Below, piece after piece: positions 14,610-42,317 of a stretch of 64,000 nucleotides of DNA (the first letter of the stretch is position 1; each line of letters begins with the position of its first letter). Position numbers and translations under genes: made by a program. Source of the DNA: an uncultured Spirochaetota bacterium (GTDB lineage: Bacteria; Spirochaetota; Spirochaetia; SZUA-6; DRHE01); the NCBI GenBank assembly GCA_963745745.1, contig CAVUYS010000006.1:4503-68502 (forward strand). Direction: 5' to 3'. The notes under the pieces are model-generated. The model did not search any database and was not told the DNA's origin. It saw only the letters and a program-made list of their open reading frames with translations.

Positions 14610-14639
14610 TTGACATATTATGAGCGGATATGTTAGAAT
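14610..14639 (+). promoter_or_regulatory. sigma70-like promoter TTGACA-18-TAGAAT for the DeoR gene, with CATAT-N9-ATATG palindrome in the spacer
   Basis: TTGACA 14610-14615 and TAGAAT 14634-14639, read directly, in the AT-rich divergent intergenic region 14502-14684. Confidence 0.5.
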
Positions 14640-14684
14640 CCAATCACGAACAAGCATGGTCGGGTTCAGGAAATCGTCAACACT

Positions 14685-15413
14685 TTGCGCATCCGCAACA
14701 TGGTCAGCATCAGGGAACTCACCAGGAAGTTCGACGTTTCCGAGATGACCATTCGGCGGGACCTCAACCTGCTGGCCGCGGAAAACCTCATCGACCTGAT
14801 TCCGGGCGGCGCCATGCTGAAACGACCGGAGGAGACCGAAAGCCGCTACCTGGTCACCAAGGAAGAGTCGGTTCGCACGATCGAGAAGCTGAAGATCGGG
14901 CAGCGGGCGGTCACCCTGGTGGAGCCCAACGAGACCATCATCCTGGACATCGGCACCACGACCGAATACCTGGCCAAGTTCCTGCGGGAGGACGCGCCGA
15001 TCACGGTTCTCTGCTACTCGCTGAACGCACTGGTTGAGGTGTACAAGAAAAAGAACTGCGCCATCATCTTCGCCGGCGGGTACTATCATCCCCAGACCAT
15101 GATGTTCGAAAGCGCGGAAGGCATCGAGCTGATCAAGCACACCCGGGCCGACAAGGCCTTCGTCTCCGCCGCCGGCATCCACGACGAGCTGGGGGTGACC
15201 ACCGTCTACCCCCACGAGCTACAGGCCAAGAAGACCATCTTGAGCTCGGCCAGAAGCCGCATCCTGGTGGTGGACTCCTCGAAGTTCGGCAACACCAAGA
15301 GCGTCTATTTCGCCGACATCGCCGATTTCCAGACCATCATCACCGACAGCGGCATCCCCGACAAGTACGCGGCTTTCATCCGGGAGCGGGGCATCGAGCT
15401 GATCGTAGTCTAG
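14685..15413 (+). CDS. DeoR family transcriptional regulator
   Basis: N-terminal HTH ...VSIRELTRKFDVSEMTIRRDLNLL... and a C-terminal sugar-phosphate sensor domain (ILDIGTTT, VVDSSKFG). In-frame similarity (QEIVNTLRI) extends upstream of the TTG start, and ATG 14656 is in another frame, so the 5' end may carry an indel. Confidence 0.85.
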   Translation: MRIRNMVSIRELTRKFDVSEMTIRRDLNLLAAENLIDLIPGGAMLKRPEETESRYLVTKEESVRTIEKLKIGQRAVTLVEPNETIILDIGTTTEYLAKFLREDAPITVLCYSLNALVEVYKKKNCAIIFAGGYYHPQTMMFESAEGIELIKHTRADKAFVSAAGIHDELGVTTVYPHELQAKKTILSSARSRILVVDSSKFGNTKSVYFADIADFQTIITDSGIPDKYAAFIRERGIELIVV

Positions 15414-17590: not shown

Positions 17591-18526
17591 TTACTGCAGA
17601 TACTTGTCGACGTTCGTCTTGTCGATCATCTCGCCGGGGATGAGGACTTCCTTGGCGTAGTCCTTCTGTCCGGCGAACACCTTCTTCAGCACCTCAACGG
17701 CGCTGGTGCCCATGACGTAGGGCTGCTGGCGGCAGGTGGCGGTGATCTCTCCCGCCTTGATCGCCTTGAGGTTGGCCAGGTCGCCGTCGAAGCCAACGAT
17801 GATAATCTTGTCCTGCAGCCCAAGGGCCTTTGCGGCCTGTTTGACCGCCAGGGCGCCCGGGTCCCAGGCTGAGAATACAACGCTGATCCGGGGGTTGGAC
17901 TGCAGCTCGTCGGTGGCGTACTGCATGGCTCGATCGGTCATCCAGTCGGTGGGGCGGAAGGTGATCTTCATCCCCGCGGCCTCGCAAACCTCTCTCACGC
18001 CCTTCGCCCTCTTGTCCCCGTTCGGATGTCCGACCTGTCCTCCGATCAGCAGCAGCTCGCCCTTCCCCTTCACCTTGTCCACGATGTAGCGGCCCGTCAG
18101 CCTGGCGGCTTCGAGGTTGTCGGTGCCGATGAAGGTCAGCACGGACGGGTGGTTGACCGTCGCGTCGACGACGACGACTGGGATGCCCTTCTTCTGGGCA
18201 GCGTCCAGGGACGGTCCCAGGGCCCGCGCGTCGACCGGCATGATGACCAGGCCGTCAAGCCCCTTGATGATCGCGTTGTCCAGCGCCTGCACCTGCAGCT
18301 CGGCCTTGGTTTCCGCCGGCATCAGGGACACGTACTCGTAACCCAGCTCCTTGCATTTGTCCTCGACGCCCTTGTTGATGTTGTAAGAGAAGATCAGCGT
18401 CGGGGCGAAGCCCGTGTAGCCGATCAACATCTTCCCGCCCTTGCCGTGGCCTTGGGCGAACGCGCCGCTCGACAGGCACAGACCGGCCAAGATCAGCACC
18501 AGGACCATCTTCCTGATTCTTGCCAT
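17591..18526 (-). CDS. sugar ABC transporter periplasmic binding protein (RbsB-like)
   Basis: AAGGAG RBS, signal peptide MARIRKMVLVLILAGLCLSSGAFA, and a PBP1 body (…VVVVDATVNH…IIIVGFDGD…). Confidence 0.85.
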   Translation of the reverse strand: MARIRKMVLVLILAGLCLSSGAFAQGHGKGGKMLIGYTGFAPTLIFSYNINKGVEDKCKELGYEYVSLMPAETKAELQVQALDNAIIKGLDGLVIMPVDARALGPSLDAAQKKGIPVVVVDATVNHPSVLTFIGTDNLEAARLTGRYIVDKVKGKGELLLIGGQVGHPNGDKRAKGVREVCEAAGMKITFRPTDWMTDRAMQYATDELQSNPRISVVFSAWDPGALAVKQAAKALGLQDKIIIVGFDGDLANLKAIKAGEITATCRQQPYVMGTSAVEVLKKVFAGQKDYAKEVLIPGEMIDKTNVDKYLQ

Positions 18527-18592
18527 TCCCTTTTCTCCTTTTCCGCAACCCCGATTTCGAATATCCGGTAACACCGGATGTCTATCCCCTTG

Positions 18593-19536
18593 CTAGTCCG
18601 ACTTCCTCTGCAGGCTGTCGGTCATGACTGCCAGGATGATCACGATGCCGATCGTGATGCGCTGCCAGAACGAGCCCAGCCCGATGTGGATCAGCCCCGT
18701 TTCGAGGGACTTGATGATCAGGACCCCCACGACGGTCCGAAAAACCCCGCCTTTGCCGCCGAAAAGGCTCGTCCCCCCGATCACCACCGCGGCGATGGCC
18801 TGCAGCTCCCACCCGTCCCCCGTGTTGGGAGTGGCCAGGTCGAACTTCGCCGTGTACATCACCCCCGCCAGACCCGCGAGGAAGCCCCCGATGACATAGT
18901 AGATGATCTGGTTGCGTTTGACCTTGACCCCGGAAAGCCGCGAGACGGTGCTGTTTCCCCCGATGGCGTAGGCGTTGAAGCCCAGCCGCGTCCACCCCAG
19001 GATGAAATAGATGGCCAGCACGCAGATCGCCAGAATGATCCCGGGCCAGCGCAGGCCCGTCCCCAGCACGGTGAAGCTCTTCGGGAAGATGGACATGTCC
19101 TTGCCGGCGCCAATGATCAGGGACACGCCTTTGGCTATTCCCATCATCCCCATGGTGACGATAAAGGCGGGAACGCCCGTGGTGACGACGATCGTTCCGT
19201 TGACCAGGCCGGCCAGGGCGCCGACGCCCACGCCGACGAGGATCGCCAGCAGGATCGGCAGCTGGCTCATCAGGACCGAGCCCACGAGGACCGTGGAGAC
19301 GGCCATGATGGAGCCCACCGAGAGGTCCAGCCCGCCGGAAATCAGCACGATCGTGGTCCCGCAGGCGACGACTCCGAGTATCGCGGAGTGGACGATGATG
19401 TTGGAAAAGGTGGCGAGCTGGCGGAACGACGGCGCCAGTACGGAAAACACGATGAGAATGGCCAGCAAAGCTAGCAGCTGAGGCACCCCTGGCCTCCCCA
19501 GCACGGCTTTTCCGCTCATTTTCTCCGCAGACACGC

Positions 19537-19552
<16 letters not shown>
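18593..19552 (-). CDS. sugar ABC transporter permease (RbsC-like)
   Basis: 319-aa multi-TM ORF with …FNAYAIGGNSTVSRLSGVKVKRNQIIYYVIGG…. Confidence 0.85.
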
Positions 19553-21083
<1,531 letters not shown>

Positions 21084-21945: not shown

Positions 21946-22744
21946 TCAATATTTCGAGGTGCTCTTGCTGCCGGTGACGATAGCGATGCCGCCGCTGGTG
22001 CCCAGGCGGGTGGCCCCGGCCTGGATCATGGCCCGGGCGTCCTCGGTGGAGCGGATGCCGCCCGCGGCCTTGACCCCCATTTCCGGCCCCACCGTGCGGC
22101 GCATGAGGGCCACGTCCTGGACGGTGGCCCCGCCGGAGGCGAAGCCGGTGGAGGTCTTCACGAAGTCGGCCCCCGCCTTCTTGGCGATCTGGCAGGCCAG
22201 CACCTTCTCCGCGTCGGTGAGCAGGGCGCACTCGATGATCATCTTCATGACCGTGGTCTGCCGGCAGGCCCTCAACACCGCCCGGATGTCCTCCTCCACG
22301 GTCTTGAGGTCCCCGGATTTCAGGGCGCCCACGTTGATCACCATGTCGATCTCGCTGGCCCCGTTCTCCACGGCGTAGCGGGTCTCCAGCCCCTTGGCGC
22401 GGCTGTCCATGGCCCCCAGGGGGAAGCCCACCACGGCGCAGACCTTCACCCCCGTGCCGCGCAGCTTGCGCGCGCACTGCGTCACCCAGGTGGAGTTCAC
22501 GCACACCGAGTAGAACTTGTACTCGATCGCCTCGGCGCACAGCTTGTCCACCTGGGCCTGGGTGGAGTCAGGCTTCAGCAGGGTGTGGTCGATGTACTTG
22601 GCCAGCTCCGGCGCCGGCAGCGGAGGCCGCTCCCGAGGACTTCGCCTCCGCCGCAGCCCCGGCGCCGCTGCCCGTCGCCTTCAGGCGGGCCAGCACCTCC
22701 TGCGTGATCTTTTCCACCATTTCCCTGGTATCCATCCGCTTCAT
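21946..22744 (-). pseudogene. deoC: deoxyribose-phosphate aldolase (DERA) with N-terminal encapsulation-peptide-like extension; one frameshift in the linker as assembled
   Basis: ATG 22744 (ATGA overlap with the rpiB stop) gives [46 protein letters not shown]. The catalytic domain ([38 protein letters not shown]...DFVKTSTGF...) is in the +1 frame. The shift is at a CC/GG dinucleotide near 22609. Confidence 0.85.
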
Positions 22745-23220
22745 CCTCTTTCCACTGCCATGATCTTGTTGACCCGCGCCCAGTGCCTTCCGCCGGCGAA
22801 AGGGGTTTGCAGCCAGGTCTTGACGATCGCGGCCAGCGCGTCCGCGCTGTGCAGCGGCCCGCCCAGGGTGAGCAGGTTGGCGTTGTTGTGCTCCCGGCTG
22901 TTCACCGCCGTTTTCTGGTCGTAGCACATCGCCGCCCGGATGCCCTTCACCTTGTTGCAGACCATGCAGGAGCCGATGCCCGCCCCGTCGATCATGATCC
23001 CCCGGTCGCAGTCGCCGGAGGCGACCTTGCGGGCCACCTTCAGCGCGAAGTCCGGGTAGTCCACGCTGTCCTTGCTGTGGGTGCCCACGTCCACGACCGT
23101 GTAGCCCAGGGTCTGCAGGTACTTCTCCAGGAATTCCTTGGCCTCGAAGCCGCCGTGGTCCGAGCCCAGGGCCACCCGCCGCACCGGCCCTGCCTCAGGG
23201 GTCGCCGCATCCGCGCTCAC
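22741..23220 (-). CDS. rpiB: RpiB/LacA/LacB family sugar-phosphate isomerase
   Basis: 159-aa ORF with GSDHGGF, GIMIDGAGIGSCMVCNKVKGIRAA, REHNNANLL and GGRHWARV. GTG start overlaps the upstream BMC-P stop. Confidence 0.85.
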   Translation of the reverse strand: MSADAATPEAGPVRRVALGSDHGGFEAKEFLEKYLQTLGYTVVDVGTHSKDSVDYPDFALKVARKVASGDCDRGIMIDGAGIGSCMVCNKVKGIRAAMCYDQKTAVNSREHNNANLLTLGGPLHSADALAAIVKTWLQTPFAGGRHWARVNKIMAVERG

Positions 23221-23495
23221 TGGCCGCCTCCGCTCTGGATGCGGTCCACGATGCCCACCACCACGGTGCGCACCGCGGCCATGGAGTTGCCCAGGATCAT
23301 CCGGCTGGAGTTGCCTTCGTCGATGATCAGCACCGTGTCCCCCTCCCCCGCCTGCACCGTATCCAGGCCCACCATGCTCTTGCCCTTGGGCTTTCCTTCC
23401 GGGTCCACGGGCTGCAGCACCAGCAGCTTGTGACCCTGCAGGTCGCTGGACTTCATCGTGGCCACCACCGTGCCGATCACGCGGGCCAGGGTCAT
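23217..23495 (-). CDS. BMC-P pentamer vertex protein (EutN/CcmL family), paralog P4a
   Basis: MTLARVIGTVVATMK...LLVLQPVD...DTVQAGEGDTVLIIDEGNSSR...VVGIVD, typical EutN/PduN length and motifs. Confidence 0.9.
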   Translation of the reverse strand: MTLARVIGTVVATMKSSDLQGHKLLVLQPVDPEGKPKGKSMVGLDTVQAGEGDTVLIIDEGNSSRMILGNSMAAVRTVVVGIVDRIQSGGGQ

Positions 23496-23755
23496 GCGTC
23501 CACCCGGTCCACGATGGCCATCACGGTGGCATCCGAGGTGTTGAACCAGTCCGTCAGGGCCAGGGCCGCCTCGCGGCCGCCTTCCCAGAGCACCAGGTCC
23601 CCGGGGCCGGCCTGCACGGTGTCACAGGCGATGAGCGCCTCCCCGTAGGCCTGCCCTCCCTCGTCCACCGGCTGCAGCAGCAGGAGCTTCACCCCTTCCA
23701 GGGCCGGGTCCTTGGCCGTGCACATCACCGAGCCGATGATCTTCCCCAGCTTCAT
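23492..23755 (-). CDS. BMC-P pentamer vertex protein (EutN/CcmL family), paralog P3a
   Basis: MKLGKIIGSVMCTAKDP...LLLLQPVD...CDTVQAGPGDLVL...VMAIVDRVD. 4-nt overlap with P4a. Confidence 0.9.
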   Translation of the reverse strand: MKLGKIIGSVMCTAKDPALEGVKLLLLQPVDEGGQAYGEALIACDTVQAGPGDLVLWEGGREAALALTDWFNTSDATVMAIVDRVDA

Positions 23756-23765
23756 GGGCCGCCTC

Positions 23766-25213
23766 TCACACGATCCGGAAATAGTCGATCAGCGCGCAGC
23801 GCCGCTCCCGGCTGAAGGTGCGTGGCCCGGGTCAGCCCTTCGCCCGTCGGGCTGGCGATGGTCCAGCTGGTGAACCCCGCCCCGCCGAAGCCCAGCCCGT
23901 CGTAGGCCGAGCCGTTCTTCACGAACAGCGAGCAGTTCATCACCTTGGCCATCTTCGACAGCTTCTCGATGTTGCGGGAATGCATCACGGCCGTGTGCCG
24001 GAAGCCGTGCTCGCAGGCCACCGCCAGCTCGATGGCCTCGTCCACGTTGGCCAGGCGCACCAGCGGCAGCACCGGCATGAGCTGCTCGGTCCAGACCAGC
24101 GGGTGGTCGCGCCCCACCTCGCACAGCAGCAGGCGCGTGCCGGCGGGCACCTCCACGCCGATGGCCCTGGCGATGACCCCCGCGTCCTTGCCCACGAAGT
24201 CCTTGTTGGCCGCCCCTTCCCGTCCCGGGCCTCCCGCCTCCTTGATCACCAGGCGGGTCACCGCCGCGGTCTGTTCGGCGTTGAGCTCGAAGGCCCCGTG
24301 CTTCTTCATCTCCGCCTTGAGCTCGTCGGCGATCGAGGAGACGGCCAGTACTTCCTTCTCGTCGATGCAGATCACGTTGTTGTCCAGGCTGGCCCCGCTC
24401 ACGATGTCCCGGCCGGCCTTGACCAGATCCGCGGTCTCGTCCACCACCACCGGCGGGTTGCCCGGTCCGGCGGCGATCGACCTTCTTGGCGCTCTTCATC
24501 GCCGCCCGCACCACCGCCGGGCCCCCGGTCACCACCAGCAGGTTGACCAGGGGGCTCTCGAAGAGCTTCTGGGCCGTGTCGATCGTGGGCTCGGCCACCG
24601 TGCACAGCACGTTGGCCGGTCCCCCGGCCCGCTGGATGGCCTCGTTCAGGATGCTCACCGTGCGGGCGCTCACCTTGCGGGCCGCCGGGTGGGCGTTGAA
24701 GACCACCGCGTTTCCCGCCGCCACCATGCCGATGGCGTTGTTGAAGATGGTCTCCGTCGGGTTGGTGCTCGGGGTGATGGAGCCCACCACCCCGTAGGGA
24801 GCCCGCTCCACCAGGGTCAGGCCGTGGTCGTCCGTGAAGCTGACCGGCACCAGGTCCTCCACCCCGGGGGTGGCGGTGATGGCGATGCGGTTCTTGAGCA
24901 CCTTGTCCTCGGCCCGGCCCATGCCGGTCTCCTCGACCGCCAGGCGGGCGATCTCCTCCAGGTGGGCCAGCCCCGTTTCCCGCATGGCGGCGATCATCCG
25001 GCGGCGGGTTTCCAGGGTGCACCCCGCGAGGTCCTCGAACGCCTTGCGGGCGGCGCGCACCGCGGACTCGATGTCCCCGAACACGCCCGCCTGCCCGGCC
25101 AGTGCCCCACCCTGCGCGCTGGCGGTCACCGGCGCAGCAGCTCCTCCGGGAGTCTGCAGCCTGGCCACCACCTGCTCCACCAGGGCCCGGATCGCAGCCT
25201 CGTTTACTTCCAT
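23766..25213 (-). pseudogene. CoA-acylating aldehyde dehydrogenase (PduP/EutE-like) with N-terminal encapsulation peptide; two frameshifts as assembled
   Basis: MEVNEAAIRALVEQVVARLQTPGG... then the ALDH core (…PYGVVGSITPSTNPTETI…, …LDNNVICIDEKEV… with the catalytic Cys, …EQLMPVLP…). Shifts are near 24478 and 23823. The restored C-terminus …TFSRERRCALIDYFRIV ends at TGA 23766-23768. Confidence 0.85.
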
Positions 25214-25794
25214 ACGCCCATCCCCTCATGCGGCAGGTCCAGCACGTGCTCCCGGATGTCCGGGTGGGGATTGGCCAGGAGCACCTCCCGGCACAAGAGG
25301 CCCTTGTCCGAAACCAGGCGCACTCCGGCGGCCAGGCCCGCCTCCACCTCGTGGATCCTGCCCATCAGCTTCACCGTGCTCTTGCCGCCCATGCCGCCGG
25401 CCAGGCGGATCTCCACCACCCGCACCGCGGAGGCCTTGGCCGCCGCGTCCGCCGCCTCGATGCCGGCGGACACCGAGAGGCTTTCGATGATGCCCAGCGC
25501 GTCCCATTCCCCGGCGCGCGCTTCCCCGCGCAGAGCCGGGATCACCTGCGGGTCCAGGTTCTGGATGAAAAGCTCGTCCACCAGCTCGGCGTTGCGCCCG
25601 GTCTTGCCGGCGGCCAGCGAGGCCTCCACCGAGGCCACGTCCCCCGTGATCAGGATCACCAGGCGCCCGGGCTCCACCAGGCGCGTGGTGATCACCGCCA
25701 CCGGCGCGGCCTTGACCATGGCGTCCAGGGCCTGCACCCCCAGCGCGATGCTGGAGTACTCCTGCACCCCGATCACGTCGTACTGCCTGCTCAT
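25204..25794 (-). CDS. BMC-T shell protein (two tandem canonical BMC domains)
   Basis: 196 aa. Two BMC-domain halves (…IGVQEYSSIALGVQALDAMVKAAPV…ITGDVASVEASLAAG… and …ALGIIESLSVSAGIEAADAAAKASAV…GRIHEVEAGLAAG…). Confidence 0.8.
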   Translation of the reverse strand: MSRQYDVIGVQEYSSIALGVQALDAMVKAAPVAVITTRLVEPGRLVILITGDVASVEASLAAGKTGRNAELVDELFIQNLDPQVIPALRGEARAGEWDALGIIESLSVSAGIEAADAAAKASAVRVVEIRLAGGMGGKSTVKLMGRIHEVEAGLAAGVRLVSDKGLLCREVLLANPHPDIREHVLDLPHEGMGVWK

Positions 25795-26078
25795 TTGCGG
25801 AACACCACTTCGCCGTGCTCGTCCACCAGGTCCACGATCCCCGAGATCAACGCGTCCACCGGCTTCTTGTCGCTGAATTGCATCTGCCGCGCCGAAGGCC
25901 CTTGGGTCACCATGACCAGCTCCCCCGCCCCGGCGCCGATGCCGTCCAGGGCCACCAGGTAGTCCCGGCGCCCCCGGCCCCGCTGGTCGCAGAGCTCCAC
26001 CAGCAGGAATTTTGCGCCGGGGATGCCGTCGCTGCGGCGCGTGGCCACGACCGTGCCGGCCACCCTGGCGAAGATCAT
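25791..26078 (-). CDS. BMC-P pentamer vertex protein (EutN/CcmL family), paralog P2a
   Basis: [15 protein letters not shown]...FLLVE...[17 protein letters not shown]...[13 protein letters not shown] overlap with the downstream BMC-T. Confidence 0.9.
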
Positions 26079-26374
26079 GCCTGGTCCTTCTGGTAGACCG
26101 TTCGGCCGTCCAGCTCCACGGTGTCCACGATGGCCACGATGGCCGCGTCGCTGGGCTTGCCGTCGGTGACCGCGGTCAGCCGGGCGCTGGAGCCGGCCAC
26201 GTAGAAGACCACCTCCCCGGGCCCGGCGCCGACCGTGTCCATGGCCACCACGTAGTCCTTCTTGCCGGCCATGGTGGCGGGGTCGAGCTTTTCCAGCAGA
26301 AGGAACTTGATCCCCTCGATCCTGGGCTCCTTGCGCGTGGATACGACCGTCCCGGTCACTCGGGCCAGGAGCAT
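26075..26374 (-). CDS. BMC-P pentamer vertex protein (EutN/CcmL family), paralog P1a
   Basis: [17 protein letters not shown]...FLLLEKLD...[20 protein letters not shown]...IVAIVDTVE. 99 aa. Confidence 0.9.
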
Positions 26375-26375
26375 T

Positions 26376-26689
26376 CTAGGCCTTCTTCTTGGCCGCGGCC
26401 TGCTGGCGTCCCAGGGGCAGGGCCTCGTCCACGTTGCCGTGCGGCCGCGGGATGATGTGCACCGACACGATCTCCCCCACCCGCTCGGCGGCCCGCTGCC
26501 CGCGTCCACCGCCGCCCGCACGGCCGCCACGTCCCCGCGCACGATCGCCGTCACGTAGCCCCCGCCGATCTTCTCGAAGCCGATCAGCTCCACCTTCGCC
26601 GCCTTCACCATCGCGTCCGAGGCTTCCACCATCGCCGCAAACCCGCGGCACTCGATCATCCCCAAGGCGTCCGAATACACGCTCTCCAT
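26376..26689 (-). pseudogene. BMC-H hexamer shell protein (PduA/EutM-like), one frameshift as assembled
   Basis: [75 protein letters not shown], then off-frame. The C-terminus [29 protein letters not shown]... is in another frame. A G is missing relative to the locus-B copy at about 26500. Confidence 0.85.
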
Positions 26690-26701
26690 GTCTCCTTCCT
26701 C

Positions 26702-27347
26702 CTATTCTTTCTGTCCCCCGGCCTCGCGCCCCGACAGGCCCGCCAGCCGGCTCTCCACGATTTCCTTGCTCACCAGCACTTCCGCCTCGTCCCCCGCGAT
26801 GTACACCCGCCCAAAGCTGCCAAACCCCGACACGTCGATGATGTTGATGTGCGAGGTCTTCTCCGCCTCGTTGGCCGCGTAGAAGGCGTACCCCGCCGGC
26901 TCCATCTCCAGCACGTACAGCGTGTCCCCCCGCAGCACCATGTTCCCGTGGCGCACCTTGTTGATCAGCTGCGCGTGGTGGTCGGAGATGTTCTTGATCA
27001 GCTGGCTGGTCAGCACCTGGGGCTTCATGCCGGTCCTCTTCCCTGGCCCCCAGCTCCTTCAGCATCGCCGCCCCCGCCTGCCGCGCGTCGGCCTGGCTGT
27101 CGGAGTGCACCTCCAGCAGCCCGAACAGCCGCTCCACGATCTGGATGCCCGGGGTCACGTTGGTGGCCTTCAGGGCGATGTCGGTGAAGCGGTTGATCTC
27201 GATGCCCGGGGAGATCTCCACCACCATGCAGGCCTGCTGGGCCACCGGGTAGTAGCCCTTGGAGGTGGTGGCCAGAAAGGAGGCCATCTGGAACTGCAGG
27301 CTGTCCAGGAAGATGTAGGTCCTCAGGTCGATCCGGTTCTCCGCCAT
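26702..27347 (-). pseudogene. permuted two-domain BMC-T shell protein (PduB/EutL-like topology), one frameshift as assembled
   Basis: Same protein as the intact 214-aa copy at 32330-32974 (about 96% aa identity by manual count). There is an extra C relative to that copy near 27030. Each half carries …E(I/M)xPxxxxxxxxxxAxKxxxVxxxxxxxxGxxGxLxxxGxxxxV…. Confidence 0.75.
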
Positions 27348-27348
27348 C

Positions 27349-27645
27349 TCACTCCCCCTTGCCGCCCAAAGGCAGCGCCGCGTCCACGTTGGCATGCGGC
27401 CGCGGAATGATGTGCACCGACACCACCTCGCCCACCCGCTCGGCGGCCCGCTGCCCGGCGTCCAGCGCCGCGCGCACCGCCGCCACGTCGCCGCGCACGA
27501 TCGCCGTCACGTAGCCCCCGCCGGTCTTCTCGTAGCGCTTCAGCTCCACCCTGGCCGCCTTGACCATCGCGTCGGAAGCTTCCACCATGGCCGCGAATCC
27601 GCGGCACTCGATCATGCCCAGCGCCTGGCCCAACGCCTCTTCCAT
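27349..27645 (-). CDS. BMC-H hexamer shell protein (PduA/EutM-like), first gene of locus A
   Basis: [73 protein letters not shown]...VHIIPRPH. 98 aa. Confidence 0.9.
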
Positions 27646-27806
27646 ATCCCTGCCCTCCTGCTTCTGGCTGTTAGAAAATTCACACCTCTTCGAGATATCG
27701 TAAGAAAGCTAACACTCCTAAGCCAAAATATCGGCCAAAATTATCATTAATGGCCCAGTATTGCACCAAAAATTTCAGTTGTCAATACATTGTTGTTAAG
27801 ATAGGA

Positions 27807-27812
27807 TATAAT
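27807..27812 (+). promoter_or_regulatory. consensus -10 box TATAAT placed 6 nt before the DeoR start codon (leaderless-type arrangement)
   Basis: TATAAT 27807-27812 and ATG 27819, with no Shine-Dalgarno in between (CAGACG). Lies in the AT-rich divergent region 27646-27818. Confidence 0.4.
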
Positions 27813-27818
27813 CAGACG

Positions 27819-28595
27819 ATGGGGAAACAAGAGCGCATCCAGCAGATCGTGGAGACCCTGCGGTCCCAGGATCTGGGCGTGTCCTCGATCCGCGAGCTGG
27901 CCGGCCGCCTGGCCGTGTCCGAGATGACCATCCGCCGGGACCTGGAGCTGCTGGCCCGCGACAACGTGGTGCGCCTGGTGCACGCCGGGGCGGTGCTGGT
28001 TTCCCCGGAGGCCGCTGCCCCGCGCTACTCGCTGGCGGAGGCCGGCGCGCACATGGCCGAGGAGAAGCGCCGGATCGGCCGAAGGGCCGCCGCGCTGATC
28101 CAGCCCCAGGACATCGTGATCGTGGACTCCGGCTCCACCACCGAAAGCCTGGTCAACGCCATCCCGGACGGCCTGCCCCTGACCCTGATCTGCTTCTCCC
28201 TGAACATCCTGGTGGCGGCGCACCGCAACAAGGAATGCCGGATCGTGTTCGCCGGAGGAGAGCTGCACGAGAACACCCTGATGTTCGAGAGCCCCGAAGG
28301 GGCCCAGCTCATCCGCCGCTCCCGGGCCAACAAGGCCTTCCTTTCGGCCAGCGGCGTGAGCGACCGGTTGGGGGTCACCTGCGCCAACTCCTACGAGGTG
28401 GAAACCAAGAAGGCGGCCATCGCCTCCTCCCTGCAGCGCATCCTGGTGACCGACTCCAGCAAGTTCGGGCGCATCCACCCTTCCCACTTCGCCGAACTGC
28501 AGGACTTCTCCGCCCTGGTCACGGACGCGGGCCTGCCCGCGGAAAGCGCCGAGTTCCTCCGCGCCAACGGCATCCAGATTCTTCTCGCCGAGTGA
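27819..28595 (+). CDS. DeoR family transcriptional regulator, divergent from BMC locus A
   Basis: MGKQERIQQIVETLRSQDLGVSSIRELAGRLAVSEMTIRRDLELL (HTH_DeoR) and a DeoR C-terminal sensor domain (IVIVDSGSTT, LVTDSSKFG). Confidence 0.85.
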   Translation: MGKQERIQQIVETLRSQDLGVSSIRELAGRLAVSEMTIRRDLELLARDNVVRLVHAGAVLVSPEAAAPRYSLAEAGAHMAEEKRRIGRRAAALIQPQDIVIVDSGSTTESLVNAIPDGLPLTLICFSLNILVAAHRNKECRIVFAGGELHENTLMFESPEGAQLIRRSRANKAFLSASGVSDRLGVTCANSYEVETKKAAIASSLQRILVTDSSKFGRIHPSHFAELQDFSALVTDAGLPAESAEFLRANGIQILLAE

Positions 28596-28612
28596 CGCCC
28601 CGGTAAGCTGTT

Positions 28613-29482
28613 TCAAGCGACCTCCAGGCGGTAGGTGCTGGTGAAGGTGCCTCCGGCCTCCAGGCGCAGGATGCCTTCCTTGGCCGACAGCTCGCCGGTG
28701 GCGCCGGGGCTGTCCGGCAGGCCGAACCAGGGCTCGAGGCAAAGGAACGGGCAGCGCCCCGGCTTGGCCCAGACCCCCAGGTAGGGGGCCCCTCCGGTAA
28801 TCACCGAAACGCTGCGGGGGTTCTGGCTGTTGCGGATGGAAACGATCCCGGAGGCCGGGTGCTTGAGGATCAGCACCCCGCGCTCGAACAGGTCCGGGCG
28901 CAGGAAGATCTGCCGGCTGGTGTCGAACACCGGGGCGGTCTGGTCCAGCATCAGGCCGTTGTCGAAAAAGTGCCTTTCCAGATTCTCCTCATCGCCGAAG
29001 TGCAGGTAGTAGTTCTCCAGCTGCCCTCCGGCGAAGGGCACCCGGATGGCGGGGTGCGAGCCGATGGAAAAGAGCATCTCCGCGGAGCCGATGTTGGTCA
29101 CCTCGTACTGCACCGCCAGCCCTGAGTCCTGCACCAGGAAGGTGACGCGCAGCCGGAAATCGAAGGGGTACTGCCGGCGGGTTTCCTCGCCGGAGCTCAG
29201 TTCCAGCGCGACGCTGGAGGCTCCCGCGGCGGCCCGCGTGAACAGGCTGCGGCGGGCGAAGCCGTGCTGCGGCAGGCTGTACTCGGCGCCCCGGTGGGTA
29301 TACTTGTTGTTCTTCAGCCCGCCGACGTTCGGGAACAGGATGGGGGCGGAGCCGCTCCACCAGGTCTGGTCCCCCGGCCAGATGTACTCCGTGCCCGATT
29401 GCCGGTCCCTCAGGCTCTTCAGCTCCGCGCCCATCTCCTCGATGCGGGCCTCGAAGCGCTCCCCGGCGATGACGACGGCCAC
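28613..29482 (-). CDS. aldose 1-epimerase (galactose mutarotase-like) family protein, last gene of BMC locus B
   Basis: GTG 29482 gives MAVVIAGERFEARIEEMGAELKSLRD...PILFPNVGGL...LPQHGFAR...SIGSHPA...PFLCLEPW, typical of the YihR/LacX-like epimerase family. Confidence 0.8.
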   Translation of the reverse strand: MAVVIAGERFEARIEEMGAELKSLRDRQSGTEYIWPGDQTWWSGSAPILFPNVGGLKNNKYTHRGAEYSLPQHGFARRSLFTRAAAGASSVALELSSGEETRRQYPFDFRLRVTFLVQDSGLAVQYEVTNIGSAEMLFSIGSHPAIRVPFAGGQLENYYLHFGDEENLERHFFDNGLMLDQTAPVFDTSRQIFLRPDLFERGVLILKHPASGIVSIRNSQNPRSVSVITGGAPYLGVWAKPGRCPFLCLEPWFGLPDSPGATGELSAKEGILRLEAGGTFTSTYRLEVA

Positions 29483-29499
29483 AGCAGACTCGGTACGGC

Positions 29500-30340
29500 T
29501 CAGTACGCGGACTTGCCCACGGCGCCGGTGACGATGGCCACCCCGGCCACCGCGCCCAGCCGGGTGGCGCCCGCGTTGATCAGGATCATGGACTTCTCGA
29601 AGGAGCGCACCCCGCCGGAGGCCTTCACGCCCATGCCCGAGCCCACGGTCCGGCGCATCAGGGCGATGTCCTCCGGGGTGGCCTCCCCGCCTCCGAAGCC
29701 GGTGCAGGTCTTCACGAAGTCGGCGCCGGCCTTTTTGGCCAGCTCGCAGGCCAGCACCTTCTCCTCCTGGCTGAGCAGGGCGGTCTCGATGATCACCTTC
29801 AGGATCGTGGTGCCGTGGCTGGCCCGCCGCACGGCCCGGATGTCCTCTTCGACATACTTCAAATCGCGCGACTTCAGGGCCCCGATGTTCAGCACCATGT
29901 CCAGCTCCGAGGCGCCGTCCTCCAGGGCGCCGCGCCCTTCGAAGGCCTTGGCGCGGGAGGACATGGCCCCCAGGGGGAAGCCGATCACCGAGCACACCTT
30001 CACGCCGGTTCCGCGCAGCTTGCGGGCCACATAGGCCACCCGGCAGGAGTTGACGCACACGGAGAAGAAGCGGTACTGCAGCGCCTCGGCGCACAGCTTG
30101 TCGAAGGCCTCCAGCGGCGCCTCGGGGCGCAGCATGGTGTGGTCGATGTACTTGGCCAGCTCCGCCGGGGACAGGGCCGCAACCGCGGCGGGCCCCGCTG
30201 CCGGCCTCGCGACGGCCCGCGCCGGCGGAGGCCTGGCCCGCGCCGGCCAGCTTGGCCATGACCTCGCCCACGATGCGCTGCACCAGCTCCTTCTGATCCA
30301 TGTCCCCGATGATCTTCCCGATCAAATCCTTCTGCTCCAT
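29500..30340 (-). pseudogene. deoC: deoxyribose-phosphate aldolase (DERA), second copy, with N-terminal encapsulation-peptide-like extension; one frameshift in the linker as assembled
   Basis: ATG 30340 gives MEQKDLIGKIIGDMDQKELVQRIVGEVMAKLAGAGQASAGAG. The catalytic domain (…[42 protein letters not shown]…DFVKTCTGF…) is in the +1 frame, ending at TGA 29500-29502. The shift is somewhere in 30170-30225. Confidence 0.85.
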
Positions 30341-30344
30341 GAAG

Positions 30345-30848
30345 CTAGATCCCTCCTCGCTCGATCGACATCAGCTTGTTCACGCGCGCCCAGTGCCGCC
30401 CGCCCGCGAAGCGGGTCTCCAGCCAGAGCCGGGCCAGCTCGCAGAGCTGGTCCCCGCTGTGCAGGGGCCCGCCCAGGGCGAGCACGTTGGCGTTGAAGTG
30501 TTCCCGGCTCATCACCACGGTGCGCGGGTCGTGGCAGGCGGCCGCCCGGATGCCCTTCACCTTGTTGCAGGCCATGGCCGAGGCAATGCCGGCCATGTCC
30601 ACCACGATGCCCCGCTCGCAGTCCCCGGAGGCCACCTTGCGGGCCACCTTCACGGCGATGTCGGGGTAGTCCACGCTCTCCTTGCCATGGGTGCCCACGT
30701 CGCTCACCTTGTAGCCGAGGGTCTGCAGGTACAGTTTGAGCACCTCCTTGCCCTCGAAACCGCGGTGGTCGGCGCCCAGGGCCACGTGCTGCACCTGGTC
30801 CGGACCGCTGCCGGCCTGTTCCCCGCCGCCCAAGCTCACCATGCTCAC
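30345..30848 (-). CDS. rpiB: RpiB/LacA/LacB family sugar-phosphate isomerase, divergent second copy
   Basis: 167 aa with GADHRGF, GIVVDMAGIASAMACNKVKGIRAA, REHFNANVL and GGRHWARV. About two-thirds identical to the locus-A copy by eye. Confidence 0.8.
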   Translation of the reverse strand: MSMVSLGGGEQAGSGPDQVQHVALGADHRGFEGKEVLKLYLQTLGYKVSDVGTHGKESVDYPDIAVKVARKVASGDCERGIVVDMAGIASAMACNKVKGIRAAACHDPRTVVMSREHFNANVLALGGPLHSGDQLCELARLWLETRFAGGRHWARVNKLMSIERGGI

Positions 30849-31123
30849 GCGTCCTTTCCCGTTCGGATCTGGTCCACGATGGCGAAGATCGTAGTGCGCA
30901 CGGCCGCCTTGGGGGCGCCCAGGATCTGGCGGCTGGAGTTGCCCTCGTCGATCAGCATCACGGTGTCCCCCTCCCCGGCCTGCACGGTGTCGCAGGCGAT
31001 CACCGTCCGGCCCGCGGGGTTTCCGTACGGGTCCAGCGGCTGCACCAGCAGCAGCTTCCGGCCCCGCAGATCCGGGATCTTCATCGTGGAAACCACCGTG
31101 CCCGTCACCCGCCCCAGGGTCAT
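30845..31123 (-). CDS. BMC-P pentamer vertex protein, paralog P4b
   Basis: [15 protein letters not shown]...LLLVQPLD...CDTVQAGEGDTVMLIDEGNSSR...FAIVD. Counterpart of P4a. Confidence 0.9.
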   Translation of the reverse strand: MTLGRVTGTVVSTMKIPDLRGRKLLLVQPLDPYGNPAGRTVIACDTVQAGEGDTVMLIDEGNSSRQILGAPKAAVRTTIFAIVDQIRTGKDA

Positions 31124-31383
31124 GCGTCCACCCGATCCACGATGCCCATCACCGCCGCATCCGCGGGATTGAAGGAGTCCGGCAGGGTCATGGCCGCCTC
31201 GCGGCCGCCCTCCCACAGCACCAGGTCGCCCGGGCCGGCCTGCACCGCGTCGCAGGCGATCAGGGGGTCCCCGTAAGCCCGCCCCCCCTCGTCCACCGGC
31301 TGCAGGAGCAGCAGCCTGGCCCCTTCCAATCCGGGGTCCTTGACGGTGCACATCACCGAGCCGACGATCCTGCCCAGCTTCAT
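31120..31383 (-). CDS. BMC-P pentamer vertex protein, paralog P3b
   Basis: MKLGRIVGSVMCTVKDP...LLLLQPVD...CDAVQAGPGDLVL...VMGIVDRVD. 69 of 87 residues identical to P3a by manual count. Confidence 0.9.
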   Translation of the reverse strand: MKLGRIVGSVMCTVKDPGLEGARLLLLQPVDEGGRAYGDPLIACDAVQAGPGDLVLWEGGREAAMTLPDSFNPADAAVMGIVDRVDA

Positions 31384-31390
31384 GCCGGTC

Positions 31391-31678
31391 TCACTTGCGG
31401 AACACCACTTCGCCGTCCTGGTCCACCAGGTCCACAATGCCGCAGACCACCGCGTCCACCGACCGGCGGTCGGTCAGCTCGGTGTTGCGCGCGGAAGGTC
31501 CCTGGGCCACCATCACCAGCTCCCCCTCCCCCGCGCCCACCGTGTCCACCGCGACCAGGTATTCCCCCCGGCCCTCCAGGCGCGGGGTGCAGGCCTCCAC
31601 GAGCAGGAACCTGGCCCCGGGGACCGTGTCGGCCCGGCGGGTCAGGACCACGGTGCCGGCGACCCTGGCGAAGGTCAC
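31391..31678 (-). CDS. BMC-P pentamer vertex protein, paralog P2b
   Basis: GTG start (GTGA overlap). [14 protein letters not shown]...FLLVE...GAGEGELVMVAQGPSAR...VCGIVDLVD. Counterpart of P2a. Confidence 0.85.
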   Translation of the reverse strand: MTFARVAGTVVLTRRADTVPGARFLLVEACTPRLEGRGEYLVAVDTVGAGEGELVMVAQGPSARNTELTDRRSVDAVVCGIVDLVDQDGEVVFRK

Positions 31679-31974
31679 GCCTGGTCCTTGCGGTAGACCG
31701 CCCGCCCGCCGACGTCCACGTCGTCCACGATCCCGATGACCGCGGCATCCGTGGGCCTGCCGTCGGTGGCCTCCGTCAGGCGGGCGGCGCTGCCGGACAC
31801 GCACAGCACCACCTCGTCCACCCCGGCGTCCACCGCGTCCATGGCCACCAGGTAGTCCTTCTTGCCGGCCATGCTCGTGGGGTCCAGCTTCTCCACCACC
31901 AGAAAGCGCACTCCCTCGGTGCGCGGCTCCTTGTGAGTGGAAACGACAGTGCCGATGACCCGGGCTAGAAACAT
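31675..31974 (-). CDS. BMC-P pentamer vertex protein, paralog P1b
   Basis: MFLARVIGTVVSTHKEP...FLVVEKLD...VLCVSGSAAR...VIGIVDDVD. 67 of 99 residues identical to P1a by manual count. Confidence 0.9.
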   Translation of the reverse strand: MFLARVIGTVVSTHKEPRTEGVRFLVVEKLDPTSMAGKKDYLVAMDAVDAGVDEVVLCVSGSAARLTEATDGRPTDAAVIGIVDDVDVGGRAVYRKDQA

Positions 31975-31990: not shown

Positions 31991-32308
31991 CTATTTCTTC
32001 TTGGCCGCGGCCGCGGCCTGCTGGCGTCCCAGGGGCAGGGCCTCGTCCACGTTGCCGTGCGGCCGCGGGATGATGTGCACCGACACCACCTCCCCCACCC
32101 GCTCGGCGGCCCGCTGCCCGGCGTCCAGCGCCGCCCGCACCGCCGCCACGTCCCCGCGCACGATCGCCGTCACGTAGCCCCCACCGGTCTTCTCGAAGCC
32201 GGTCAGCTCCACCTTCGCCGCCTTCACCATCGCGTCCGAGGCTTCCACCATCGCCGCAAACCCGCGGCACTCGATCATCCCCAAGGCGTCCGAATACACG
32301 CTCTCCAT
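31991..32308 (-). CDS. BMC-H hexamer shell protein (PduA/EutM-like)
   Basis: Intact 105-aa [87 protein letters not shown]... Confidence 0.9.
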   Translation of the reverse strand: MESVYSDALGMIECRGFAAMVEASDAMVKAAKVELTGFEKTGGGYVTAIVRGDVAAVRAALDAGQRAAERVGEVVSVHIIPRPHGNVDEALPLGRQQAAAAAKKK

Positions 32309-32983: not shown

Positions 32984-33763
32984 CTAGTGCATCTCCCGCC
33001 CGCCGGTGATGTTGAACGCCTGGCCGGTGCAGTAGTCCCCGCTCACGGTCAGGAAGTGGACGAAGTCCACGACGTCCTCGATGCGGGTCAGCCGCCCCAG
33101 GGGGATCTTGGCGGTGAACTTCTTCACCACCTCCTTCTCGGGCAGCTTCAGGTTCTCGGTGTAGGCCTTGCTCACCTCGCCCCACACCCCGGTGGCCTCG
33201 GTGATGCCGGGGCAGACGCAGTTGACCTTGACGTTGGCCTCGGCCAGCTCGAAGGCCAGCGCGTGGGTCAGGCTGATGATCGCGCCCTTGGCCGCCGAAT
33301 AGTGGGCCATCAGCGCGGAGCCGGTCTTCCCGGATTTTGACGAGAAGTTGATGATCCGTCCATCCTTCAGGGCGCGCATGCCGGGCGCCACGGCCTGCGC
33401 GCAGTACAGGGCGCCGTGCACATTGACCCGCATGATGCGGTCCATCAGCTCCGGGGTGATCTGCTCGAAGGGTCGCTGGTCCACCAGCCCGGCGTTGTTC
33501 ACCAGGCAGAATACCGGACCCAGGACCCGGGCGATTTCCGCGAAGCAGGCCAGCACCGCCTCCCGGTCCGTGATGTCCACCACGTAGCCGACCGCGGTGC
33601 GGCCCTGCGCGGCCAGGCGCTCCGCCTCCTGTTTCACTGCCGGATTGATGTCCAGCAGCGCCACCTTCGCGCCGTCCGCGGCGTAGCGCTCGGCGATCGC
33701 CAGGCCGATGCTGCGGGCCGCCCCGGTAATCACGCAGACCCTGTTAGCCAATGTTAGAGCCAT
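32984..33763 (-). CDS. short-chain dehydrogenase/reductase (SDR), first gene of BMC locus B
   Basis: MALTLANRVCVITGAARSIGLAIA, NNAG, YSAAKGAI. 259 aa. The stop lies 9 nt before the BMC-T start. Confidence 0.85.
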   Translation of the reverse strand: MALTLANRVCVITGAARSIGLAIAERYAADGAKVALLDINPAVKQEAERLAAQGRTAVGYVVDITDREAVLACFAEIARVLGPVFCLVNNAGLVDQRPFEQITPELMDRIMRVNVHGALYCAQAVAPGMRALKDGRIINFSSKSGKTGSALMAHYSAAKGAIISLTHALAFELAEANVKVNCVCPGITEATGVWGEVSKAYTENLKLPEKEVVKKFTAKIPLGRLTRIEDVVDFVHFLTVSGDYCTGQAFNITGGREMH

Positions 33764-33779
33764 GACCGGAAGCCTAAAG

Positions 33780-33811
33780 AAACCGCTGGTTTTTGTCAAC
33801 CGAAAACGGTT
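33780..33811. promoter_or_regulatory. two adjacent AACC/GGTT palindromes (AAACC-GCT-GGTTT and AACCG-AAAA-CGGTT) flanking a TTGTCA box: candidate DeoR operator
   Basis: Read directly at 33780-33792 and 33798-33811, in the 91-bp divergent region between SDR (33763, minus) and DeoR (33855, plus). Confidence 0.35.
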
Positions 33812-33854
33812 TTTTCTGGACATTTTTGGCTTTTTTCGGTACTCTGCCTCGTAC

Positions 33855-34625
33855 ATGCTTCCGTACGAACGGCAGGAGCGGATCCTGGCATCGCTGCAGG
33901 ACCGGCGTTTCCTGAAAATCGAGGACCTCTTGCGGCTGACCGGCAGCTCGCTCACGACCCTGCGCAGGGACATCGAGCAGCTGGCCGACGGCGGCAGGGT
34001 GCGCAAGTCCCGGGGCGGGATTCTGCTGACCGATTCCGTCGCGCCGGAAGCCGTGGATCCGCTGTACCGCACCCGCGAGCGGCAGAATACTGATGAAAAA
34101 GAGCGCATCGGCGCGGCCGCGCAAGCGCACATCGCCGAAGGGGACATCCTGTTCCTGCTCAACGGGACCACCACCCGCGCGGTGGCCGAGCAGCTGGACC
34201 CGGCCAAGCGGGTGACCATCATCACCAACGGCATCGACATCGCCGCGGCCCTGCGCGGCAAGCCCAACGCCGAGGTGATCCTGCTGGGCGGGGTCGTGGA
34301 CTACGCCCACAACACGCTGTGCGGCCCGCTGGCGCTGAAGAGCCTGGAGCACCTGCACGCCGCGCGGCTCATCTCCGGAGCGGGGGGCATCACCGAAGAG
34401 AAGGGCGTCACGATCTACCCGTATCTGGTTTCCGCCTACTACCAGAACATCGTGCGCATGGTGAGCGAGGTGATCCTCGTGGCCGACCGCTCCAAACTGG
34501 GGCGCAACGCCCTCGTGCAGGCCACCGCCCTGGAGGAGGTGGACCTGATCATCACCGACAAGGTCGTGCCGCCCGAGCACCTGCGGATGTTCGAGCGGCA
34601 CGGCGTGCGCTGCGAGCAGGTCTAG
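33855..34625 (+). CDS. DeoR family transcriptional regulator, divergent from BMC locus B
   Basis: MLPYERQERILASLQDRRFLKIEDLLRLTGSSLTTLRRDIEQL (HTH) and a DeoR C-terminal domain (LFLLNGTTT, LVADRSKLG). Confidence 0.85.
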   Translation: MLPYERQERILASLQDRRFLKIEDLLRLTGSSLTTLRRDIEQLADGGRVRKSRGGILLTDSVAPEAVDPLYRTRERQNTDEKERIGAAAQAHIAEGDILFLLNGTTTRAVAEQLDPAKRVTIITNGIDIAAALRGKPNAEVILLGGVVDYAHNTLCGPLALKSLEHLHAARLISGAGGITEEKGVTIYPYLVSAYYQNIVRMVSEVILVADRSKLGRNALVQATALEEVDLIITDKVVPPEHLRMFERHGVRCEQV

Positions 34626-39600: not shown

Positions 39601-39778
39601 CCGGCACGAAGCCCTTGGCCCCCTCGACGCGCACCACGCATACCCAGCAGGAGGCGTAGGGCTCCAGGCGGGGGTCGTGGCAAAGAGTGGGGATGCGCAG
39701 GCCCTGGGCCTCGGCCACGTCCAGGATGGTCTGCTCGGGCCGGGCCAGAAGGCGCCGGCCGTTCAGCTCGATCTCCAC
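36635..39778 (-). CDS. multidomain iron-sulfur flavoprotein: N-terminal 2Fe-2S ferredoxin + GltD/NfnB-like NAD(P)H-FAD oxidoreductase + 4Fe-4S clusters + NuoG/formate-dehydrogenase-like C-terminal domain
   Basis: Intact 1047-aa ORF (GTG 39778). IELNGRRL…PTLCHDPRLEPYASCWVCVV (NuoG-type 2Fe-2S); VVVIGAGPAGLSAAYYL and VAVIGGGNTAIDSART (two dinucleotide folds as in GltD); CVLCGRCIRIC, CINCGQCVSACP, CSLCSVGCP cluster motifs. Confidence 0.75.
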   Translation of the reverse strand: MEIELNGRRLLARPEQTILDVAEAQGLRIPTLCHDPRLEPYASCWVCVVRVEGAKGFVPACSTRVRQGMRVVTDDADLRATRRMALELMLSNHYGDCKAPCTLTCPSNLDVQGYLGLIANGNDREALALIKRDCPFPLSIGRVCPRPCEEACRRNLVDEPVGIDWCKRYAADLDMGSAAPYDPPVAAKTGRRVVVIGAGPAGLSAAYYLAQAGVAVTVLESEEKAGGMLRYGIPDYRLPQPVLDKEVQSILRLGVELKTGVRLGRDVQLEELRKSYDAVLLAFGAWKGSGLRIQGEDRPGVLIGIDFLREVALGRRPQLGDRVAVIGGGNTAIDSARTAARLGVREVNLFYRRTDVEMPASQAEVHEALEEGVHFYYLVAPMMIQEKGKGLKALRLIKMQLGEPDSSGRRRPVPLEGSDFEVEVDTVISAIGQYPDTSALAKTAGLLDERGLLKCDEETGRTGVPGVFAAGDLPTGADIAIRAIAGGKHAARAILAWLAGGDYRRPVEFLSKKEDFGKPTEAEFQQEPRVARQAMPMTEASARVKSFEEIEQGLSAEQARAEARRCLECGCQDVHECRLKEYAQEYGASARHYEGEIQKHPIDESHPFIRRDPAKCVLCGRCIRICLEVQGLGVLGYVRRGFQSLVVPTFGVSFGEDPLCINCGQCVSACPVGALTEKIPDGKTVPLIEAIQEGFCSLCSVGCPVELRSHGGLLVRVKERTLKGAGAGANGAAASGAAGGGLLCEKGRFGLVKLLQAAGRGGGSAPSAGGKPLQAAEARARLEALLGKARQPLLRLSPVLAAEVLDRFLAFASTRGIPVQAEGLAGLEPGWVDLLRRPAAVAVAAPGANGVPRILIAGGLDRANNVAFTDCLALQRRGQARLWYYGETEEVYERFFERILPDPALLAEGLKGAGGPVTVLVNPEQLLAEAGKGAERKVLAALRAAGPEVRITLYWNSRNAAYLLEALDRQGAGLEAPHDLLLDAGLSADGKAAVRWGLTAGAEAGQAGLFIPLPRAAFLSGLGKPSGREPLQAGELDKALLQNLLVG

Positions 39779-42309: not shown

Positions 42310-42317
42310 GAGCCTCC

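Follow-up and report, generated by a model that had tools for sequence, protein, structure and literature searches.

We analysed a window of 64,000 nucleotides from an uncultured Spirochaetota bacterium (assembly GCA_963745745.1, contig CAVUYS010000006.1, positions 4,503 to 68,502), in which two adjacent bacterial microcompartment (BMC) loci, here called A and B, together encode eight shell pentamer proteins (BMC-P) of the EutN/CcmL type. Both loci lie on the minus strand, and each carries the same four pentamer types, P1 to P4. The order in locus A is BMC-H, BMC-Tdp, BMC-H, P1, P2, BMC-Ts, aldehyde dehydrogenase (AldDH), P3, P4, RpiB and DeoC, followed by a short-chain dehydrogenase; in locus B it is short-chain dehydrogenase, BMC-Tdp, BMC-H, P1, P2, P3, P4, RpiB, DeoC and aldose 1-epimerase. 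The eight pentamer genes are the following, with their scores against the PF03319 (EutN_CcmL) profile.

31675-31974, minus strand: B1, type P1, divergent, with DAGVDE instead of GAGxGE; 93.1 bits; P1 clan
31391-31678, minus strand: B2, type P2, GTG start; 88.2 bits; P2 clan
31120-31383, minus strand: B3, type P3; 88.7 bits; P3 clan
30845-31123, minus strand: B4, type P4; 90.7 bits; P4 clan
26075-26374, minus strand: A1, type P1, nearest to the pentamer of the Haliangium ochraceum (HO) shell; 92 bits; best PDB match 5v74, 90 bits
25791-26078, minus strand: A2, type P2, ortholog of the catalogue's "kermit", SPU2-like green subclade, mapped via loci L018 and L057; 92.8 bits
23492-23755, minus strand: A3, type P3; 85.9 bits
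23217-23495, minus strand: A4, type P4; 89.5 bits

The PF03319 profile (83 positions, gathering score 25) was matched by all eight open reading frames (ORFs) over positions 1-83/83, with 86-93 bits and E values of 1e-24 to 1e-26. The initial annotation had proposed eight EutN/CcmL-type ORFs at these coordinates, falling into four distinct types with a same-order counterpart in the other locus, and both points are confirmed: in global pairwise alignments identity was 62-79% within a type versus 31-49% across types, the closest pair of types being P1 and P2 (47-49%). Identical residues between the loci numbered 67/99 for A1/B1, 63/95 for A2/B2, 69/87 for A3/B3 and 57/92 for A4/B4, and the manual counts given earlier for P1 and P3 were thus reproduced exactly. 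No further BMC-P gene was found in the window by a BMC-P hidden Markov model (HMM) built from the eight sequences and run over all six-frame ORFs. The 4-nt overlaps previously noted are also present, as judged from the coordinates and the upstream sequences: they read ATGA at A1/A2, A3/A4 and B3/B4, but GTGA at B1/B2. Since the same kind of overlap also couples P4 to RpiB and RpiB to the DeoC of locus A, the overlaps are a feature of a compact high-GC operon and are not specific to the pentamer pairs.

For the comparison with solved structures in the PDB, A1, A3 and A4 were used as queries. A1 matched 5v74 with 90 bits, A3 matched the same entry with 58 bits, and A4 matched EutN (2hd3) with 55 bits and 5v74 with 50 bits. 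P3 and P4 hence match solved pentamers weakly, at 50-58 bits, and neither type has a close solved structure. The predicted BMC-P fold of the eight proteins is settled by the Pfam and PDB sequence matches.

Several motifs bear on where these proteins may sit in a shell. All eight have an invariant IVD and retain the acidic sixth residue of the GAGxGE-type loop; the role of the IVD motif is reportedly described in the work on the HO shell. P3 and P4 have the loop variant QAGxGD in common. In B1 (31675-31974) and in its ortholog on the related contig L024 (L024 1283-1582), DAGVDE replaces GAGxGE, a conserved change of the b lineage in the hexamer-contacting loop that brings two extra acidic residues compared with other P1-type proteins. 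The BMC-H proteins of the window carry KAAK/KAAR and PRPH. In carboxysome shells, the equivalent loop residue forms a salt bridge to the arginine of the hexamer motif (A/P)RPH (PMC13370225). Because the acidic loop residue and IVD are kept in each, all eight proteins are plausibly able to occupy shell vertices. Conservation is highest in P1 and lowest in P2; as the most conserved type and the nearest to a proven cap, P1 is probably the principal pentamer.

Four BMC-P types in one locus had been presented in the initial annotation as exceptional. This was not borne out by a survey of species-representative genomes, which were scanned with the P1/P2 alignment and examined over +/-10 kb around the loci. 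The survey returned 80 loci in Spirochaetota, Atribacterota, Bacteroidales, Moduliflexus and KSB3, and these phyla correspond to the taxon range of the type 2 sugar-phosphate-utilisation (SPU2) loci in the BMC catalogue of Sutter et al. 2021 (PMC8217296). BMC-P genes were counted with the HMM over six-frame ORFs, merging frameshift fragments, in the 57 loci having at least 6.5 kb downstream of P1. Exactly four were found in 39/40 loci containing P2, and three (P1...P3-P4) in the other 17/17, which belong to Chloroflexia, Acidimicrobiia and other groups. Gene order was constant, with P1-P2, a gap of 1.5-4.5 kb and then P3-P4; the triplet loci have P1, a gap and P3-P4. P3 adjoins P4 in every one of the approximately 60 loci examined. 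The count across related loci and the catalogued SPU2 signature agree that four BMC-P per locus is the norm of this locus family, and the four-paralog pentamer set is a known signature of SPU2. A single locus with full flanks, at 10001-10581 of L021 (CP070841.1, a Spirochaetota chromosome), has P1-P2 but, over +/-10 kb, lacks P3-P4, and probably represents one of the split loci noted for SPU2 in the catalogue.

The types are also old. In a neighbour-joining tree of 280 sequences, evaluated by an unrooted split test with position-based type labels, P1, P2, P3 and P4 each formed a perfect clan, and P1+P2 were cleanly split from P3+P4. A midpoint-rooted monophyly test with identity-based labels had given a meaningless outcome and was dropped in favour of the split test. 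The four BMC-P types are therefore ancient orthologous groups that define the family.

For such a set of types the initial annotation had suggested heteropentamers, vertex specialisation or non-vertex roles. In the first case, heteropentamers could be obligate, such as P3/P4 pentamers of mixed composition encoded by the translationally coupled genes, and would break the five-fold symmetry of the vertex. The constant adjacency of P3 and P4, their 4-nt overlap in the window, their common QAGxGD loop and their joint position on one side of the split from P1+P2 all fit such an arrangement. Against this, 4-nt overlaps also link unrelated genes such as P4 and RpiB, leaving the coupling not specific to the pair, and no BMC-P hetero-oligomer has been reported, hetero-hexamers of CcmK being the only case (PMC10681173). 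We hold obligate heteropentamers to be unlikely.

Beside the pentamers, the two loci contain the following genes and features.

33708-34625, plus strand: DeoR-family regulator, divergent from locus B; ORF, equivalents on related contigs match PF08220/PF00455
32984-33742, minus strand: short-chain dehydrogenase opening the locus B operon; PF00106, 181 bits
32330-32974, minus strand: locus B BMC-Tdp, 214 aa, a CsoS1D/CcmP-like double-BMC trimer; PF27545 (CsoS1D_N) on orthologs of identical length, weak PF00936, 98% amino acid identity to the locus A Tdp
31991-32308, minus strand: locus B BMC-H hexamer; PF00936, 103.5 bits; 99% identity with BMC-H of locus A in contig L003
30345-30848, minus strand: locus B RpiB (ribose-5-phosphate isomerase B type); PF02502, 160 bits
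29500-30340, minus strand: locus B DeoC-type aldolase with an N-terminal helix and linker resembling an encapsulation peptide (EP); PF01791; frame broken in the linker near 30225 (2-nt gap versus L003, where a 280-aa ortholog is intact)
28613-29482, minus strand: aldose 1-epimerase closing locus B; PF01263, 87.6 bits
27750-28595, plus strand: DeoR-family regulator between the loci, divergent from locus A; ORF, PF08220/PF00455 on orthologs
27757-27807, both strands: divergent pair of sigma-70-like promoter matches between DeoR and locus A, TTGACA-17-AATACT on the minus strand; consensus match only
27349-27645, minus strand: first BMC-H of locus A, 98 aa; PF00936, 105 bits
26702-27347, minus strand: locus A BMC-Tdp, with a frame-breaking 1-nt insertion at about 27031 (versus L003); found by tblastn in two frame pieces
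26376-26689, minus strand: second BMC-H of locus A, with a frame-breaking 1-nt deletion at about 26502 (versus L003); found by tblastn
25204-25794, minus strand: BMC-Ts with tandem BMC domains (196 aa), present in locus A alone; PF00936 in two stretches, 117 bits
23752-25213, minus strand: AldDH of locus A, frame broken twice; found by tblastn, intact orthologs of 474-475 aa carry PF00171
22741-23220, minus strand: locus A RpiB; PF02502, 181 bits
21946-22744, minus strand: DeoC-type aldolase of locus A, carrying an EP-like helix at its N terminus and a frame break in the linker; PF01791; tblastn pieces 22744-22679 and 22614-21949, intact 265-aa ortholog in contig L004
21173-21925, minus strand: short-chain dehydrogenase after locus A; ORF, 250-aa L004 ortholog with PF00106

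Each locus thus has its own divergent DeoR regulator. The region between DeoR and locus A holds two sigma-70-like sites versus 0.7 expected, as consensus matches only. DeoC (pfam01791) and RpiB (pfam02502) are encoded alongside shell genes in both loci, while AldDH and BMC-Ts are each present once in the window, in locus A; tblastn found no match in the window for a second Ts, a second AldDH or PduS.

This gene content places the region within the catalogued SPU2 loci, whose enzymes are restricted to AldDH, pfam01791 and pfam02502 (Sutter et al. 2021, PMC8217296, Supplementary Data 2) and whose hosts include Bacteroidetes, Spirochaetes, Atribacteria, Moduliflexus, KSB3 and others (PMC8217296). 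The window shares with them a Spirochaetes host, AldDH, DeoC and RpiB as the only enzymes, and N-terminal EP-like helices on AldDH and DeoC. Indeed, AldDH and both DeoC proteins start with a short helix that leads into a linker rich in Ala, Gly and Pro, the pattern that the catalogue gives for SPU encapsulation peptides. The SPU2 set of a CcmP/CsoS1D-like Tdp, a Ts and one or two BMC-H is present as well (Tdp of 214 aa, Ts of 196 aa, BMC-H at 103-105 bits), as is the BMC-P triplet with an extra copy of the green clade, giving four BMC-P with P2 labelled "kermit" and the P1 position labelled "viridian1". AldDH, the core enzyme of SPU loci, is encoded by locus A; locus B alone lacks it.

The catalogue labels were transferred through loci syntenic with the window. 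In the catalogued SPU2 loci L018 (Atribacteria RBG_19FT_COMBO_35_14) and L057 (Spirochaeta LUC14_002_19_P3), both of which the survey had also returned, the P2 orthologs (95 aa) are labelled "kermit" (P_kermit_spu2like); a 100-aa protein of Spirochaetes DG_61 at the P1 position is labelled "viridian1", and the Tdp of both L057 and DG_61 is labelled ccmP-like "petrol2". P1 is assigned to the green "viridian1" subclade and P2 to the extra green "kermit" copy specific to SPU2. Since P1 and P2 map to green subclades, and P3 and P4 neighbour each other throughout the loci examined, the four distinct types leave P3-P4, by elimination, as the predicted grey/orange pair of the "BMC-P triplet". In L018, a 440-aa gene at 10663-11985, between P2 and Ts, appears PduS-like from its N-terminal sequence and its position beside Ts, and has no match in the window.

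The window differs from catalogued SPU2 loci in its second partial copy two genes away, as the catalogue gives SPU2 no satellite loci and only occasional splits. A satellite locus in the sense of Sutter et al. is a shell-gene cluster without either BMC-H or BMC-P (PMC8217296). Locus B has both, and so it is not a satellite but a second cluster of the main type, which, lying two genes from A, would be merged with it by the catalogue definition. The consolidated locus then has eight BMC-P, three BMC-H, two Tdp and one Ts, without a PduS homolog. Its eight pentamers exceed the five of MIC3, a number termed "unusual" in the catalogue (PMC8217296).

Other catalogued systems offer partial parallels. 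SPU6 is a precedent for a partial SPU duplicate lacking some enzymes, of which the catalogue describes none for SPU2, but it differs in having a C-terminal EP on AldDH, a Tdp of the blue clade, the BMC-P triplet only and a host of another phylum. The loci with a BMC-P triplet (PVM, HO, MIC3, MIC4 and MUF2) likewise have several conserved BMC-P paralogs including an always-adjacent pair, and in MIC4 and MUF2 a fourth copy has been added as in the window; they differ in their signature enzymes, and none is described with two complete quartets. The HO pentamer (5v74/6mzx), which caps the vertices of a solved shell, is the best solved match of A1, and the BMC-P of the HO main locus is labelled viridian1_mixed-spu, the same subclade as P1. 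This likeness is not shared by P3 and P4, given the low scores reported above.

The count of eight comes from a partial tandem duplicate of the locus. Locus B keeps Tdp, BMC-H, the four BMC-P, RpiB and an EP-tagged DeoC, without AldDH or BMC-T of the Ts type, and among the genome representatives the window's species alone has eight BMC-P within +/-10 kb. The order B, epimerase, DeoR, A recurs in independent assemblies, both long-read (L001 and L002) and short-read (L003), and is also found in a second metagenomic lineage (L092, short-read), in which B1 is about 83% identical. A third lineage (L024 and L087-L091) has one complete locus in which P1-P4, RpiB and DeoC of the b type are accompanied by Ts and AldDH. 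For P2, P3 and P4, the smallest clade comprises the window's A and B copies together with L024, which points to a lineage-specific duplication; B1 lies on a long branch.

The four types had further been described as maintained, and this is supported by the comparison of strains. Between the window and L003, the ratio of nonsynonymous to synonymous substitution rates (dN/dS) was 0-0.14 for all eight BMC-P genes, and 0.03-0.13 for those of locus B. All eight are under purifying selection. Between A and B the ratio was higher, at 0.23-0.75 with its maximum at P4. This increase, the absence of the core AldDH and of BMC-Ts, and the loss of the canonical GAGxGE glycines in B1 would fit a decaying remnant of the duplication, the four pentamers of which had no function of their own. 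Nevertheless, the four B genes are intact and constrained between strains, the AldDH-less layout is kept in the second lineage, DAGVDE is conserved in L024, and the locus has retained its EP-tagged DeoC and its own regulator. Decay of locus B is thus very unlikely, and locus B is a maintained, lineage-specific partial duplicate.

On two short-read contigs, L005 (1813-7017) and L094 (1-2821), the upstream region of one locus is joined to the P1 of the other; these joins may have arisen when the assembler crossed over within the near-identical Tdp-BMC-H repeat, or may reflect true recombination. That the doubled locus is itself an assembly artefact, the SPU2 loci of two co-existing strains having been joined in tandem, would agree with these joins and with the many small indels of the window assembly, yet it is extremely improbable, as the same order was obtained by long-read and short-read assembly from different samples and as the A and B BMC-P proteins differ by 21-38%, with differing gene content, far beyond strain variation.

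The duplicate is a mosaic. The Tdp-BMC-H blocks of B (32974-31977) and A (27347-26376) are 93-100% identical in nucleotide sequence, with a drop to 70-79% that coincides exactly with the first codon of P1; the same boundary was seen in another strain (L002), which is 90% identical overall. The tract resembles a gene-conversion tract ending at the first pentamer gene. Between A and B, dS was 0.11 for Tdp and BMC-H versus 0.32-0.71 for the four BMC-P genes and DeoC, and protein identity was 98-99% for Tdp and BMC-H, 62-79% for BMC-P, 71% for RpiB and 65% for DeoC. As identity is high in the facet genes while the pentamers, RpiB and DeoC have diverged, the facet genes have probably been homogenised by gene conversion, with two sets of pentamers, RpiB and DeoC being retained.

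The single-locus lineage was compared with both loci through tables of dN and identity instead of dS, since dS across lineages was 0.33-0.81 throughout, probably near saturation with strong GC bias at third codon positions, and does not discriminate as to whether the Ts and AldDH of locus A have a history in common with the genes of locus B. The Tdp, BMC-H, Ts and AldDH of locus A are 86-96% identical to those of L087, and its P1, P2, P4, RpiB and DeoC are just 59-73% identical, no closer than to those of other phyla. On the Spirochaetaceae contigs L024 (1-6368) and L087 (6659-13935), P1-P4, RpiB and DeoC are of the b type, and Ts and AldDH are 86-92% identical to those of locus A of the window.

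Related sequences were also informative on the quality of the assembly. A protein identical to A1 is encoded on 23 metagenome contigs and in the Spirochaetota metagenome-assembled genome MFD00709.bin.3.160 (L007); the contigs bearing A1 are 90-95% identical to the window in DNA sequence and hence represent other strains. For B1, an exact-sequence look-up gave no record; its relatives were obtained by homology search, followed by look-ups of P0003 and P0008. When compared with the short-read contig L003, the assembly of the window shows frame-breaking indels of 1-2 nt at about 30225 (linker of the locus B DeoC), 27031 (locus A Tdp), 26502 (locus A BMC-H), and 24478 and 23822 (AldDH). Further frame breaks lie in the linker of the locus A DeoC (22614-22679) and in a zinc alcohol dehydrogenase (about 35300), and none lies inside a BMC-P gene. 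These indels are probably assembly errors, because all the affected genes are intact on short-read contigs (L003, L004, L006, L024 and L087; AldDH is intact at 474-475 aa in L003 and L087) and the long-read contigs L001 and L002 are broken in different genes. On the same grounds, real pseudogenisation of locus A was considered and judged less likely than assembly error.

The surroundings of the loci contain further genes for sugar metabolism and transport. Sets of sugar-type ATP-binding cassette (ABC) transporter genes, comprising a periplasmic binding protein, BPD_transp_2 permeases and a double ABC ATPase, lie at 17591-21083, directly downstream of locus A, and at 7845-11389. A third DeoR regulator is found at 14637-15413, with a GFO/IDH/MocA oxidoreductase and additional short-chain dehydrogenases close by. 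Upstream of locus B, the region 36635-44400 encodes a 1089-aa iron-sulphur flavoprotein (Fer2_4, Fer4_20, Pyr_redox_2), a protein resembling NuoF (Complex1_51K), a sugar kinase of the PfkB type and a protein with a SIS domain; this flavoprotein occurs upstream of the single-locus relative L087 too, indicating that its linkage to the locus is conserved. Finally, searches of the window for RNA genes with ARAGORN and with Rfam (gathering thresholds) yielded just one, a tRNA-Leu (GAG) at 59395-59479.

Taken together, the region very probably consists of two adjacent, separately regulated operons of one SPU2-type metabolosome of a high-GC Spirochaetota bacterium, A being the complete locus and B a lineage-specific partial paralog. 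Most likely, locus B would supply an alternative cargo (RpiB and the EP-tagged DeoC) with a matching pentamer set, under its own DeoR; its products would enter shells whose hexamers and trimers hardly differ between the loci, and would rely on locus A for AldDH, of which there is a single copy. Four points weigh against this interpretation. The division of labour between A and B, and the occupancy of the vertices by one paralog or another, are read from sequence. P3 and P4 were assigned to grey/orange indirectly, by adjacency and elimination rather than with the catalogue's colour HMMs. The tree is a neighbour-joining tree only, in which B1 is not grouped with A1. Moreover, if the indels in Tdp, BMC-H, AldDH (twice) and both DeoC genes were real, locus A would be decaying in this strain.

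The set of four types highlighted in the initial annotation is already catalogued and so brings no novelty to BMC biology. The tandem A/B pair does offer a natural experiment on why metabolosomes keep several pentamer paralogs, the reason for which is stated to be unknown (PMC8217296; PMC11585597). A single genome holds two diverged, selectively maintained quartets beside near-identical hexamer and trimer genes and a single AldDH, and the question at stake is whether one pentamer paralog can replace another as a cap or whether each serves a particular cargo or condition. It is conceivable, though in our estimation quite unlikely, that the two quartets are matched to cargo and not to facets, the facet genes having been converted while each quartet diverged along with the RpiB and DeoC of its own locus. 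Were this so, BMC-P paralogs, especially the P3-P4 pair flanking RpiB and DeoC, would have a lumen- or cargo-facing role and, beyond passive vertex capping, might serve to nucleate cargo, to select it, or to distinguish two organelle subtypes assembled from the same tiles.

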